Below, piece after piece: positions 2,937-16,138 of a stretch of 16,138 bases of DNA. The position numbers and the translations under genes are program-made. The stretch's first letter is position 1; each line of letters starts with the position of its first letter. Origin of the DNA: Candidatus Nanohalarchaeota archaeon (lineage in GTDB: Archaea > Nanohalarchaeota > Nanosalinia > Nanosalinales > JAFCCC01); the NCBI GenBank assembly GCA_017610385.1, contig JAFCCC010000012.1, positions 1-16,138 on the forward strand, given 5' to 3'. The notes beneath the pieces were generated by a model. It made no database searches and was not told the origin of the DNA. It worked only from the letters and a program-made list of their open reading frames with translations.

Positions 2937-5693
2937 ATGATAAGAAGAATCCTTTATCTATTTTTAATTCTATTTTTATTAGTTCCAGCCACACATGCTG
3001 CATGGACTTTAACAGCCACAAGTTTACCCATGGAACTAGATAGTAATTCATACACCGTACTTAGAGCAAAATTACTAAATGGAACAACCCCTATTGATGA
3101 AGAAACATGTATTCCGGGCCCCATTACAATAAAATACCAGTACGGGTCAACATTGGGCTTTCTAAATTCGATTGGGAATGGGATATGGGTTGCAGAACAT
3201 TCACCCACAGACTTACCTGCAACAATCACCATAACAGCTACAGGAGATTGTGGGGTAGCAAGTGATGTGACTACATTTTTAAATCTTCCAGCAAACGGTG
3301 GTCTTTCCGTAGACATTTTGAATTTCAACTCAGAAGCACCACAAGGAAGTTCAAAAGTACTTTTGGTTAATGTTAGTAATTCTAGCGGCGTTGTTTCTGG
3401 CGCTACGGTGCTATACAGAATATATAATTTATCAGGTTCTTCACAAGCAATAATGGAAGGCACATTTTCAGAATTCGGTGAATTTTATAATGCTACGATG
3501 GAACTGCCTACAGAACTTGGAAACTATTCATATGAAGTTACTGCAACGGCTCCAATTGGGACGGGAGTAACAGGTGGGGACGGACGTTTATTTCATACAG
3601 TTGAAACGATTTCTGGTCCAGTAAGCATTAATGGTACAGAAAACAAATGTGCAACCTCTAATGGAATTATTACTTCATGCGAATTAAATTCTATGCTAAG
3701 CTTTGAGTTTGAAGAAGAGGTTGGGGTTCCAGATAATGTTTGGGTAGAAATCTGGGGAACTGATTTAATAGAAAAAGTCAATTTAAGTAATGTAACAGAA
3801 GGTAGCCAAAGATATTGGCGGGGAACTTATTCTTTACCAGAAGATTATAATTTATCAAAAACAAAAGAATCTCAAAACAATGAGCTAACTTTAAAAGTTA
3901 TTGCAAATGACGAATTTGAAAATTACACCCTATTAACCTCAAATGTAAATTTAGTTACTTATTGGACAATTCCGTATTCTAAGTATTCTACTAGACCAGG
4001 AGAAGTATTAGATATTTCTTTTGAAGTTGTTAAACCATATAGTGGAGATCATTTGCGTATGGGGGATTTAGAAGGTTTTAATGTTTCTGTATTTTATATC
4101 ACCGATTCTGGGACAAAAACATCAGTAAAAAACTATACTCTCTCACAGATGACTTATGATAATGACTTATTTCATCTGCAACATACTGTACAAGAAGATA
4201 CTCTTGAAGGGACCTATGGATATCAGTGGACTATATTAAATGCTTTTGGTCAAAAATCATCAGATTCACTCACATACAAAGAATTTTCAGTAATTAGTCA
4301 AACACAATCTGGTCCAGTAATAATTAATCGGTCTGTGATTTCTAATTCATTTGAAGAATCAGGAATATTTTATGAAATTTTAAACTTTAATAACACAGAT
4401 TTAAGTAGAGTCATTGTTCGACCAATCGTTTTAGGCTCTATTTCCGAAATTGTTTTTGGGGATTTTGTTCTAGATGAAAATAACGCGAGTGAAGATAGCA
4501 AATACATAATTGAATCCAATACTTCAAAAGAATTTATTATTGGATATAATATAACTAATAATTTATCTGAAAACTACGATGGAACTTTGGTTATTCGGGT
4601 GTTCTCGGATTTACAGGGCAGCATAGAAAAGTACAGAACAGAAATACCGTTAGAAACGCAAATTGGTGGCAAAACAACAAACGGAACCCTTCAAGTTAAT
4701 GTAAATAAAATAGAACGAAACTTTATTGATTCGGGAACATATGTTCAAAATATTACCGTATTTAATAGGGGTTCTGAGACCATAAATGTAAGTATTAGCG
4801 CAGAAGGGACGATTAAACAAATAAATTCTATCTCGCCAACAGAATTAACAATTGCTGCAGGGGATGTAGGCTATGCTTTTTTCACTCAAACAGTATACGT
4901 AACTGATAATGGAATTTATGGGGGATATTATGTTTTTAATACCTCTGAAAATAAAATAAAAATTCCTGTAAATCTAACCACAGACATTTCTGGTATTGTA
5001 AGTGGAAAATTACAAGTAACTATTGAAAACGCTTCACTTGGTTCCGTTATTAAAGGAGATCCATTAAATATAACTGTAGAAGTAAAAAATATAGGGCAAT
5101 CTAATTTAAGCAATTTTACAGCCTCTACTCTAGTTATCTCTAACTTATATACCATCACAAATGCAGAAGGACTTGTATTAGAACCAGAAGAAAGTATTAA
5201 CTTAGAACTAACAATTCACACAGAAAAACTAAGTGAGGGAATAGACAATACAAGAAAATTAATTATTTCTGCAGATCTCAATGCGGAAAATTTTACATAT
5301 ATTTCATTAAAAGTAGATGCAAACTATTCGACTAAATTTGAGAGTCTAAATAGCTCTATATCAACATATAGAACTGACTTGGAGGACATTTTAACAGAAG
5401 AGTTAAAAGAAAACAAAACAGATTTAGAATCAAAAATTACAGATTTAGAAAATCTCATTGAAAAAGGAAAAGGAGAATGGGACACTAAAAACTATAATGC
5501 ATCTAAGACAACATATAGTGCTGCAGAAAGACTAAGTGAAGAAATACATTCTAGAATAAGAGCTTTGCAAAATTATACGCCAGCTCCCGATGAAACTCCT
5601 TCAGGGAACTCTAAAGCGTGGATTTTCATAGTTATTTTTATAATTTTAATTGTTATTGGAGTAGTAATTTACATGAGTTTAGTTCCAGAGTGA
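2937..5693 (+). CDS. Large secreted, C-terminally anchored surface glycoprotein with Ig-like beta domains
   Basis: Signal peptide (MIRR + hydrophobic core + ATHA/A); Thr/Ser/Asn-rich beta body with over 25 N-x-S/T sequons; CARDB-like motifs (ITVEVKNIG, LEPEES); coiled-coil near the C-terminus, Pro-rich linker and a single TM helix. Confidence 0.85.
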   Translation: MIRRILYLFLILFLLVPATHAAWTLTATSLPMELDSNSYTVLRAKLLNGTTPIDEETCIPGPITIKYQYGSTLGFLNSIGNGIWVAEHSPTDLPATITITATGDCGVASDVTTFLNLPANGGLSVDILNFNSEAPQGSSKVLLVNVSNSSGVVSGATVLYRIYNLSGSSQAIMEGTFSEFGEFYNATMELPTELGNYSYEVTATAPIGTGVTGGDGRLFHTVETISGPVSINGTENKCATSNGIITSCELNSMLSFEFEEEVGVPDNVWVEIWGTDLIEKVNLSNVTEGSQRYWRGTYSLPEDYNLSKTKESQNNELTLKVIANDEFENYTLLTSNVNLVTYWTIPYSKYSTRPGEVLDISFEVVKPYSGDHLRMGDLEGFNVSVFYITDSGTKTSVKNYTLSQMTYDNDLFHLQHTVQEDTLEGTYGYQWTILNAFGQKSSDSLTYKEFSVISQTQSGPVIINRSVISNSFEESGIFYEILNFNNTDLSRVIVRPIVLGSISEIVFGDFVLDENNASEDSKYIIESNTSKEFIIGYNITNNLSENYDGTLVIRVFSDLQGSIEKYRTEIPLETQIGGKTTNGTLQVNVNKIERNFIDSGTYVQNITVFNRGSETINVSISAEGTIKQINSISPTELTIAAGDVGYAFFTQTVYVTDNGIYGGYYVFNTSENKIKIPVNLTTDISGIVSGKLQVTIENASLGSVIKGDPLNITVEVKNIGQSNLSNFTASTLVISNLYTITNAEGLVLEPEESINLELTIHTEKLSEGIDNTRKLIISADLNAENFTYISLKVDANYSTKFESLNSSISTYRTDLEDILTEELKENKTDLESKITDLENLIEKGKGEWDTKNYNASKTTYSAAERLSEEIHSRIRALQNYTPAPDETPSGNSKAWIFIVIFIILIVIGVVIYMSLVPE

Positions 5694-5727
5694 ATCTTTT
5701 TAACCTAACAAAAACAAATTGTTTTGT

Positions 5728-6141
5728 ATGGCAATAACAGATTTTTTAGGAGTATTTCAGCTAAATAATCTTTTGTTATTTGTTCTAATTGTAATTATTC
5801 TAGTGATTGCATTCAAACTTCTTAAAATATTCTTTGAAACATTGTTAGTTGCGATATTATCTGCAGTATTTTACTTATTTTTAAGCTATTCTGGAGCGAA
5901 TTTAGACATGAATGCAACTAATATTCTATTTTTCTCTTTAATTGGAACAATAGTCTTCATAATTTATTCTATGCTCTCTCCGCTAGTTTCTTTGCTCTTT
6001 AAAACAGGCAATAAAGTAGTTAAAGGAACTTCAAAAGCATTAAAGGGAAGAAAATTCAAATCAAGAATAAAAAGCAAACCAAAAGAAAGTGCACATCCTC
6101 AAGAAAAAGAAGTGATCTTAAAAGAGATTAAAAATGACTGA
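5728..6141 (+). CDS. Uncharacterised multi-pass membrane protein with basic C-terminal tail
   Basis: About 3 hydrophobic helices. ATG 5728 preferred because TTTTTAAC (5697-5704) lies about 27 nt upstream. Confidence 0.8.
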   Translation: MAITDFLGVFQLNNLLLFVLIVIILVIAFKLLKIFFETLLVAILSAVFYLFLSYSGANLDMNATNILFFSLIGTIVFIIYSMLSPLVSLLFKTGNKVVKGTSKALKGRKFKSRIKSKPKESAHPQEKEVILKEIKND

Positions 6142-13733: not shown

Positions 13734-14321
13734 ATGAAATTTTTTGATGTGCGTTTTCCAAAAGATGTTAAGACAATTACGCTTTTTCTTGTTTTAGCAG
13801 TTATTTTAGCATACGGAGCATATAATACCGCAGGAACAGCATTACACACGACCATTCCGATTGTTTCTGTTGTCTCAGATTCTATGAAACATGATGAAAA
13901 AACTGGAAGTTCTTATTATGAGTATTTAATAACTAAATTTAGTTATACTAGAACATTTATTGATACCTGGCCACTAAAAAATGGTTTTGTGAGAGGGGAT
14001 TTATTAACAGTGACTGGTGCAAACACATCTACTCTAGATGTGGGGGATGTTATTGTTTATAATCTAAAAAACAGCGAATCAATAGATTGCGATAGATTTG
14101 AAAAAGCTTTAAAAGAGCAAGGAATCGATAAAGTAGTACACAGAATTATTAGAAAATTTACAGAAAATGGAGAGATTTATTTTATGACAAAGGGGGATCA
14201 TAACTTTCAGATGGACCCGTGCAGAATTCAGAATAAAGAGATTGAAGGAAAAGCCATTTTTAAACTTCCCTTAGTAGGTTATTTGAAATTAATCCCTGCT
14301 AAAATCTTTGGTGCAATTTAA
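13734..14321 (+). CDS. Signal peptidase I (S26, archaeal Sec11-like)
   Basis: N-terminal TM, catalytic VVSDSM, GDL, VGDVIVY, VVHRI and TKGDHN...D. Confidence 0.92.
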   Translation: MKFFDVRFPKDVKTITLFLVLAVILAYGAYNTAGTALHTTIPIVSVVSDSMKHDEKTGSSYYEYLITKFSYTRTFIDTWPLKNGFVRGDLLTVTGANTSTLDVGDVIVYNLKNSESIDCDRFEKALKEQGIDKVVHRIIRKFTENGEIYFMTKGDHNFQMDPCRIQNKEIEGKAIFKLPLVGYLKLIPAKIFGAI

Positions 14322-15459: not shown

Positions 15460-15632
15460 GCGACTGTAATCTACCGGTATGATTCAAGCTTCCCAAGCTT
15501 GCTGAGCGGGTTCGATACAAACTGCTGTCAGCTTGACCCTTACAGGGGGTTAATAATAACCCACTTTAAAGTCCGAGTACTCGGACTTTTTAACACTTTT
15601 ATCAGCAGTTTGCGAAAATCCCGCCAGTCGCA
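15460..15632 (+). tRNA. tRNA-Gly(CCC) with a T-loop intron (exons 15460-15516 and 15619-15632)
   Basis: Acceptor stem GCGACTG/CAGTCGC, discriminator A, anticodon arm CAAGC-TTCCCAA-GCTTG, T stem GCGGG/CCCGC, spliced T loop TTCGATT; CCA not encoded. Confidence 0.93.
15517..15618 (+). other. 102-nt BHB intron at tRNA position 59/60
   Basis: Central helix TTCG/CGAA, 3-nt bulges AT|A and AA|T, and a 10-bp closing helix CAAACTGCTG/CAGCAGTTTG. Confidence 0.92.
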
Positions 15633-15684
15633 ATTATCTTTAACTGAGTTCCAAAATCCAAAAATAGAATGTAGAATTCGAAAT

Positions 15685-15774
15685 TTATTTCTTCCTGTGC
15701 CTCATCTTTCGTCTTCTTTTTCTTTGCTTGTGCTTCCTTAATTTTTGTCTTTTTCTCTTCTTTCCGCAAGGCAT
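15685..15774 (-). CDS. 29-aa basic protein, bS22/mS38 (AURKAIP1/COX24-domain)-like ribosomal protein
   Basis: MPCGKKRKRQKLRKHKQRKRRRKMRHRKK; GAGGT 7 nt upstream (15782-15786); TATA-like TTAATATA at about 15811-15818 on the minus strand. Confidence 0.82.
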   Translation of the reverse strand: MPCGKKRKRQKLRKHKQRKRRRKMRHRKK

Positions 15775-15927
15775 GTATAAAACCTCTCTCAGATAACATT
15801 ATCAGTTAACTATATTAACTTTATTATGGGGGTTCTGGAAGTGAACAACCAAAAAGCAAAAAACGTTATATATTCTTAGTATTAAAGGATAGTGGGTCAG
15901 CCGAGACTCGAACTCGGGTCTGGACCT

Positions 15928-16078
15928 CTTTCTTAGCGTTTAATAAACTCAAACATTTGATTTTAGCTTAAACTTTTTATTAAAAAGTTTTATTTTATTT
16001 TCGCTTAAAGCTTTTTGTTTTTATTTTGCTTAAGCTTTTATTTGAAAAGCTTATTTGCTTGAGCTTTGTGAAAGCTCA
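15928..16078 (-). other. 151-nt tRNA intron with a relaxed BHB
   Basis: 3' bulge AG|A; central helix TTCG/AGAA (3 bp plus G.A); weak outer pairing GAGCTTT/AAACGCTA. Confidence 0.85.
15961..16078. repeat. Tandem foot-plus-hairpin units of the same family as 1-208, inside the tRNA-Pro intron
   Basis: Units at 15961-15990, 15998-16016 (half unit), 16024-16053 and 16054-16078, each with a T-rich GCT foot before an A(G/A)CTTT..AAAG(C/T)T stem. Confidence 0.85.
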
Positions 16079-16138
16079 CCCGAAGGTCCAATGATACCAC
16101 TACACTACCGACCCAAACTTTACTCAAAACATTTCTCA

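Follow-up and report, generated by a model that had tools for sequence, protein, structure and literature searches.

A Short Open Reading Frame of the bS22 Ribosomal Protein Type in a Nanohalarchaeota Archaeon and Its Relatives in Other Archaeal Phyla

Introduction

The prefixes of ribosomal protein names, 'b', 'a/e' and 'u', assume a settled distribution of the proteins over the domains of life. The locus considered here raises the question of whether a family carrying the 'b' prefix is confined to Bacteria. It lies on contig JAFCCC010000012.1 of assembly GCA_017610385.1, from a Candidatus Nanohalarchaeota archaeon; the whole of the 16,138-nucleotide stretch analyzed is referred to as the window. 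The initial annotation, made from the letters of the window, read a 29-codon ORF near its end as a gene for a bacterial-type, bS22/mS38-like ribosomal protein, present instead of, or alongside, the archaeal protein eL41. Three questions arise. To which family does the peptide belong, does it act in the place of eL41, and is the ORF a gene at all?

Bacterial bS22 is described as a bent helix, 61% Lys/Arg, that sits in the h2/h27/h44/h45 pocket near the decoding center and contacts H68/H70 of the large subunit (10.1101/2023.04.16.537070; PMC12123416). For archaea, eL41 is described as the occupant of a pocket lined by h27, h44, and h45 (PMC7005279).

The Locus and Its Host

The assembly, genome G000 of our collection, has 788,277 bases in 18 contigs, with 32.4% G+C, and is 93.5% complete. 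The contig is archaeal and belongs to a small-genome archaeon. Within its 16 kb are archaeal genes for eL21, Rpb4/RpoF, DUF655, KsgA/Dim1, L10e (uL16), the diphthamide synthase Dph2, Rpb11/RpoL, and TFS, and the intron-bearing tRNAs of the contig are counted with these markers. The bacterial host implied by the 'b' prefix is thus not what is found here, which is a limit of the name and not of homology. Three window ORFs, at 2937-5693 (+) (918 aa), 5719-6141 (+), and 13734-14321 (+), have no Pfam match at E ≤ 0.001; they lie among otherwise well-annotated translation and transcription genes.

The features of the locus are as follows.

15685..15774, minus strand: bS22-type ORF with ATG start, 29 codons, and TAA stop (15687-15685), peptide MPCGKKRKRQKLRKHKQRKRRRKMRHRKK (ORF listing)
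15782..15790, minus strand: putative Shine-Dalgarno (SD)-like element GAGAGAGGT; its GAGGT core, at 15786-15782, is separated by the 7 nt TTTATAC from the ATG at 15774-15772
15811..15818, minus strand: possible archaeal TATA box TTAATATA, about 40 nt upstream of the ATG, proposed from sequence only
15653..15664, minus strand: oligo-T tracts TTTTTGGATTTT, 21-32 nt past the stop codon, which by their sequence may be an archaeal termination signal
15892-16114, minus strand: tRNA-Pro(CGG) with a 151-nt intron in the anticodon loop (ARAGORN with the intron option, aragorn -i)
~15460-15637, plus strand: tRNA-Gly(CCC) with a ~100-nt intron in the T-loop, a non-canonical position (ARAGORN after in-silico intron removal)

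The 29-codon ORF is located in the 254-base gap separating the two tRNA genes. It is hidden in the sense that the initial annotation had given to the word: the ORF listing places it in a different frame from a 65-aa ORF (15602..15799, minus strand), which overlaps it and has no Pfam match, and its GAGGT is well spaced, 7 nt from the ATG. An 80-aa ORF is listed in the same stretch. The 3′ end of the 16S rRNA of this genome reads ...GGATCACCTCC (contig C9), so that SD pairing is possible for the 29-codon ORF. Among 18 window ORFs checked, five have an SD-like motif, this ORF being one of the five. A scan for bacterial-type terminators found none. Taken together, the TATA-like box, the SD-like motif, and the oligo-T tracts would possibly make the ORF an independent small transcription unit.

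Both flanking tRNA genes are missed by default ARAGORN and by Rfam at gathering score. Rfam finds no family at gathering score anywhere in the window, the only matches near the ORF being two sub-threshold ones. The tRNA-Gly(CCC) is called only with the segment from ~15515-15521 to 15614-15623 removed, and its splice points are approximate. The minus-strand fold of the ~15460-15637 stretch is highly structured (z = -5.6).

Family Membership of the Peptide

The peptide has 29 residues, 72% of which are Lys or Arg. Its ORF is the most Lys/Arg-dense stop-to-stop frame of the 788-kb assembly, with 15 of 20 residues, the runners-up having 13. At 29 codons it falls within the length range of free-standing bS22 ORFs, ~28-35 codons.

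When 177,635 distinct PDB sequences were searched with the peptide by phmmer at E ≤ 10, just three matches were returned, and all are bS22 chains: 8fmw_V (E = 1.7e-4), 7jil_5 (7.5e-4), and 9i5v_10 (4.2e-3). Each is aligned end to end, over residues 1-28/29. The Bacteroidota/Chlorobi-type bS22 pattern that the initial annotation had named is thereby borne out, since bS22 chains, matched over 28-29 residues, are the sole PDB matches. Chain 8fmw_V is described as the bS22 of the Borrelia burgdorferi ribosome (10.1101/2023.04.16.537070). Chains 7jil_5 and 9i5v_10 are assigned to Flavobacterium johnsoniae and Porphyromonas gingivalis, respectively, from the text of the papers; the PDB table names no organism.

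Relatives of the peptide were retrieved with a 48-nt degenerate DNA pattern for MPxG[KR]KR-x7-HK, the reversed pattern serving as the control. G000 has one match to the pattern and none to the control. Searched against the PDB, a profile of 54 archaeal peptides, A2, again placed these bS22 chains first (2.8e-7 to 2e-6), followed by an mS38 chain (8a22_BC, 0.079), bL35 N-termini (0.15-0.25), and a yeast-type mS38 chain (5mrc_11, 3.7). That is, the archaeal profile reaches mS38 weakly. No eL41 chain is among the PDB matches of the peptide or of A2 at E ≤ 10. The family profile scores the window peptide at E = 8e-11. Comparison of the archaeal and bacterial bS22-type profiles by hhalign gave a probability of 99.05% (E = 2e-18, all 31 columns), a value that is not fully independent because both sets came from the same pattern.

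The retrieval pattern was derived from the window peptide, and positions 1, 2, 4-7, 15, and 16 are conserved by construction. Independent of the pattern are only the PDB searches and a shuffle test on the free positions. A PSSM was derived from 64 unique bacterial peptides. On it, the window peptide reaches 22.2 bits; composition-preserving shuffles average -75.4 bits, with a maximum of -8.9, and 0 of 200,000 reach the observed score. When only the positions left free by the pattern are considered, 1 of 200,000 does. Thus, the order of the motif (P2, G4, K6-R7-K8, H15-K16, R25-H26) is matched beyond Lys/Arg richness, and the suspicion that shuffled basic peptides might score as well against bS22 is answered: all 200,000 score below the peptide, and in the free-position test a single one equals it.

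The domain databases are less generous. At E ≤ 10, the threshold used for these counts, the Pfam COX24_C model (PF08213) recognizes 39 of the 54 archaeal peptides, with a best E of 1.8e-5, and 41 of the 64 bacterial ones; the model's own cut-off is 23 bits. COX24_C is the only recurrent Pfam family among the archaeal and bacterial bS22-type peptides. The window peptide alone has no Pfam or NCBIfam match (hmmscan, Pfam E ≤ 10), and PF08213 is blank across the genome. Accordingly, the COX24/AURKAIP1 link made in the initial annotation stands for the family but not for the window's own peptide. NCBIfam matched 0 of 64 bacterial and 0 of 54 archaeal peptides; its blank for the window peptide is therefore uninformative, since it misses all of these peptides too. 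Pfam Ribosomal_L41 (PF05162) likewise matched 0 of 54 archaeal and 0 of 64 bacterial peptides.

Distribution of bS22-Type ORFs

A near-identical pattern, applied to 185,579 species genomes, found at least 119 loci, and every match listed starts a short ORF. Among the 119 matches listed, 117 are complete ORFs of 28-35 codons and two run off the stored stretch. The labelled hosts among the matches listed include Bacteroidota, Balneolales, Chlorobiaceae, Cloacimonadota, Omnitrophota, Planctomycetia, WOR-3, Gemmatimonadota, and Spirochaetota. At least nine records among the matches listed are labelled as archaea, as follows: Aenigmatarchaeota, Altiarchaeales, 'Methanobacteriota archaeon', and 'uncultured archaeon'.

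Archaea were covered through four phyla and a sample of 81 other archaeal genomes. The window's phylum is represented in the genome collection by 70 species genomes of one order. Of these, two carry a bS22-type ORF, namely G000 and G001, each alone in its family, and the pattern and the profile agree on this count. The remaining 68 genomes yield no credible match to the bS22-type profile. Weak matches at L003, L004, and L266 were rejected, lying inside longer or unrelated frames. By the pattern, the ORF is present in 38 of 61 genomes of the Altiarchaeales-labelled phylum, in 55 of 371 of the Aenigmatarchaeota-labelled phylum, where the carriers are clustered in one part of the genome list, and in 12 of 42 of a fourth archaeal phylum. 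Each carrier genome in the four phyla has one match, and the reversed-pattern control gave 0 in every set. The bS22-type profile was blank in five sampled non-carriers. In sum, 107 genomes from four archaeal phyla (2 + 38 + 55 + 12) carry the bS22-type gene, and eL41 was detected in none of them. Conservation in related genomes, on which the initial annotation had staked its proposal, thus extends to G001 and to three further archaeal phyla. With 2 carriers in 70 genomes, the gene is nevertheless not a conserved core component of the window's phylum.

The gene neighbors vary. They are tRNA genes in the window, a HhH-GPD glycosylase gene in G001, and Memo, ATP-dependent DNA ligase, or TruB/Cbf5-like genes elsewhere. 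On some carrier contigs, the neighbors are of archaeal type (ATP-dependent DNA ligase, Memo, TruB/Cbf5-like), and some carrier contigs are large, e.g., the 511-kb contig that carries L115.

P2, G4, H15, K16, and R25 are invariant in common to the archaeal peptides and the ribosomal bS22 chains. The archaeal consensus is HK[LQ].K.R..KMRH where Bacteroidota have HKRKKRLRKNRH.

Proposed Role at the Decoding Center

With good confidence, we take the ORF to be a real protein-coding gene, missed by annotation, that belongs to the Bacteroidota/Spirochaetota type of the bS22 family, is distantly akin to mitochondrial mS38/COX24, and has a product that most likely fills the eL41 site. The last step is proposed because no eL41 gene is detectable in this archaeon. 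From the analogy with the bacterial protein, we infer that the peptide is translated, binds the ribosome, and occupies the eL41 site. As a bent helix, it would enter the pocket that h2, h27, h44, and h45 of the small-subunit rRNA line beside the decoding center; it would also contact large-subunit rRNA, providing an extra intersubunit bridge. The pocket that holds eL41/eS32 in other archaea and in eukaryotes would be filled here by a bS22-type protein.

The likeness to the three bS22 chains (8FMW chain V of B. burgdorferi, 7JIL_5, and 9I5V_10) comprises a length class of 28-30 aa, the MPxG[KR]KRK start, a hydrophobic position 12, H15-K16, R25-H26, and a K-rich tail. The Borrelia gene is described as likewise unannotated and found by a translated genome search (10.1101/2023.04.16.537070). 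The present case differs in that the host is archaeal, and in that ribosome binding, solved for the bacterial proteins, is here deduced from them. Mitochondrial mS38 (AURKAIP1/COX24, PF08213) is described as longer than the bS22-type protein (10.1101/2023.04.16.537070). The actinobacterial bS22 of the Mycobacterium smegmatis type (33 aa) is described under the same name and in the same pocket (10.1101/2023.04.16.537070; PMC7005279). It appears to be a more distant subtype, being absent from the PDB matches (E ≤ 10) of the peptide and of the archaeal profile.

A role away from the ribosome has to be weighed. The peptide could be a conserved, translated, small basic peptide, e.g., nucleic-acid-binding or chaperone-like, that resembles bS22 in sequence only. 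Its placement on the ribosome is, after all, reasoned by analogy, the gene lies outside ribosomal operons among variable neighbors, and its distribution within phyla (2/70, 55/371) is patchy, which is unusual for a core ribosomal protein. Patchiness is, however, normal for the bS22 family, because bS22 is dispensable or absent in many bacteria, E. coli being described as without it (PMC12123416). Bacterial bS22 genes, too, were retrieved at scattered loci across many lineages. Furthermore, an end-to-end match, at equal length, to three structurally verified ribosomal chains, with the five invariant residues P2, G4, H15, K16, and R25 in place, is not readily reconciled with a likeness in sequence only. 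We therefore regard a non-ribosomal role as improbable and a ribosomal bS22-type protein as the better reading.

eL41 and the Question of Replacement

Archaeal eL41/eS32 (PDB 6SW9 chain 0; 9FNY chain A2) is, like the window peptide, very short, Lys/Arg-rich, and often missed by annotation. It differs in its length of 30-44 residues and in its RWKW-KKR core, and it has no detectable sequence relation to the window peptide.

Detection of eL41 in archaea is not straightforward. Pfam PF05162 gave nothing above its cut-off in scans of 70 + 5 + 5 + 5 genomes; those of its weak matches in the 70-genome scan that were translated proved spurious. The model also missed genuine eL41 ORFs in G519 (L270) and G542 (L271) that were later found with the motif WKWxKKR, so blank PF05162 results in archaea are untrustworthy. 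WKWxKKR, a short eL41 motif, was searched as DNA in 151 genomes. It gave 22 matches, 17 of them genuine eL41-type ORFs of 30-44 codons, and all 17 are in the 81 archaea outside the window's phylum. The five remaining matches, among them all three in the window's phylum, were rejected as spurious. The RWKW-KKR core is invariant in the 16 archaeal eL41 sequences collected.

Some of these ORFs have unusual starts. L279-L282 and L272 seem to start with TTG. At L267, the conserved N-terminal part is preceded by no ATG, GTG, or TTG, and the ORF may start at ATA or ATT. The apparent use of non-ATG starts by several archaeal eL41-type ORFs is a further reason for eL41 being unannotated.

An archaeal eL41 profile, A4, was built from 16 of the ORFs. 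Against the PDB, it recovers 29 eL41/eS32 sequences and no bS22 chain. At E ≤ 10, it has no match in G000 (93.5% complete), in G001, or in three other carriers. The WKWxKKR motif is also absent from G000, and none of the other Lys/Arg-rich short frames of that genome is eL41-like. An eL41 gene may still lie undetected in G000, the genome being only 93.5% complete.

These results also bear on the idea that the peptide itself is a divergent archaeal eL41/eS32 orthologue and not of the bS22 type. The two proteins would be expected in the same pocket, both are Lys/Arg-rich helixes of ~25-37 residues, and the C-terminal ...RRKMRHRKK of the peptide resembles the C-terminus of eukaryotic eL41. Yet the two families do not find each other: the eL41 profile finds 29 eL41/eS32 sequences in the PDB without a bS22 chain, bS22-type queries find no eL41 chain at E ≤ 10, the hhalign probability for A2 (bS22-type) against A4 (eL41) is 2.85%, and none of the 54 archaeal peptides is matched by PF05162. 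The window peptide contains neither tryptophan nor the RWKW-KKR core, so that the initial annotation was right in noting the absence of the KW.KKR pattern of eL41. Descent from eL41 is thus very improbable, and we proceed with the bS22-type reading.

Is bS22 then present instead of eL41? In the Aenigmatarchaeota-labelled phylum, A4 found eL41 in 3 of 371 genomes, all of them non-carriers of the bS22-type ORF. The overlap between bS22-type and eL41-type ORFs is zero both among the 151 genomes (7 vs. 17) and among the 371 (55 vs. 3), which is not evidence of exclusivity, as independence predicts only ~0.8 and ~0.4 overlaps. Neither ORF was detected in 68 of 70 genomes of the window's phylum and in 313 of 371 of the Aenigmatarchaeota-labelled phylum. 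In these genomes, the pocket is either vacant or taken by a small protein of a third kind. A case in point is the closed genome G027, of the main family of the window's phylum, in which no credible bS22-type or eL41-type ORF was found. The best Lys/Arg-rich candidate in G027 (L255:9153-9233) was rejected as an alternative frame of an acidic protein. The pocket can therefore evidently dispense with either detectable protein, which weakens the notion of a replacement. The claim of the initial annotation that bS22 is there instead of eL41 thus holds to the extent that A4 finds no eL41 in a 93.5%-complete genome, but mutual exclusivity across genomes is not statistically supported. Replacement of eL41 by a bS22-type protein is plausible for this genome and compatible with the sequence data, not demonstrated as a rule.

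The bS22-type gene offers, in any case, a concrete candidate answer to some of the missing-eL41 problem. No paper on eL41 in DPANN was found in the full-text literature. If the peptide is on the ribosome, archaea would vary in the peptide that fills a pocket adjacent to the decoding center, these peptides being apparently unrelated.

Coding Signal and Annotation

The length of the ORF is conserved: 66 of 67 archaeal ORFs have 28-31 codons, the exception reading through masked N. One bS22-type ORF, L201 (G433:C1), runs into masked N, and its C-terminus is unreadable. In the ORF frame, pN/pS is 0.20 for 32 Altiarchaeales-phylum sequences and 0.12 for 30 Aenigmatarchaeota-phylum sequences; in the other two frames, it is 0.98-2.4. 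The third codon position has roughly double the entropy of the first and the second. These values show that purifying selection acts on the bS22-type ORF, and in this frame only. Conservation in four archaeal phyla is thus joined by selection on the encoded peptide.

A chance, untranslated ORF in the purine-rich spacer between two tRNA genes has next to no probability left: a 32% G+C genome and a purine-rich ORF easily give rise to K/R/E-rich frames, and the 65-aa and 80-aa ORFs come from the same stretch, but frame-specific purifying selection over 62 archaeal nucleotide sequences, conserved ORF length, reversed-pattern controls of 0, the shuffle test, and the finding that all 119 pattern matches listed from the species collection start short ORFs speak against it.

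The gene is overlooked by gene callers, as the initial annotation had expected. Of ten exact peptides, nine, including those of the window and of Capnocytophaga and WOR-3 records, are absent from a collection of 15 billion proteins, and the tenth is annotated 'hypothetical protein'. The bS22-type gene is thus a marker for annotation pipelines to add. No report of bS22 in archaea was found in the full-text literature, a scope that leaves supplements and subscription journals aside. The bS22 family is an established one; what appears to be new is its occurrence in archaea, across four phyla or more.

Phylogeny and Transfer

Tree inference by maximum likelihood used 118 unique peptides and 30 columns. 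The tree is unrooted, many of its forks are unresolved, and the bootstrap was unsettled. One clade, with support of 95/88, holds all 54 archaeal rows and two bacterial-labelled rows, L108 and L129. It is nested, in the unrooted tree, among rows of WOR-3 and Hydrothermia. The bS22 peptides of WOR-3 (Caldifarciminota) and Hydrothermia are thus the nearest bacterial relatives in the tree; their hosts are bacterial. The window peptide groups with rows of the Altiarchaeales phylum (91/94). The tree fits one old exchange between bacteria and archaea, in either direction since it is unrooted, which would have been followed by inheritance within archaea.

A more far-reaching proposal can be made, tentatively, and we consider it unlikely on present evidence. 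It holds that a bS22/mS38-type peptide is an ancient occupant of the decoding-center pocket, common to Bacteria, to mitochondria, and to much of the DPANN-like Archaea. This peptide would be a 'uS22' whose place eL41 has taken in eukaryotes and in the remaining archaea; alternatively, it would stem from an early transfer between domains, after which four or more archaeal phyla inherited it vertically over a long time. Irrespective of this proposal, the 'b' label of bS22 would be wrong if the archaeal peptide is on the ribosome.

The two bacterial-labelled rows of the archaeal clade merit a description. L108 comes from a WOR-3 record, and only 2 of 30 positions distinguish it from the archaeal L198. 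L129 is from a record labelled 'Bacteroidetes' and adjoins an RNase E/G gene; that is, an archaeal-type peptide is found in a setting that is bacterial by label and by neighbor. Both peptides have the archaeal-subtype sequence ...HKLKKRRKKMR[HY]... and may be a trace of transfer between the domains.
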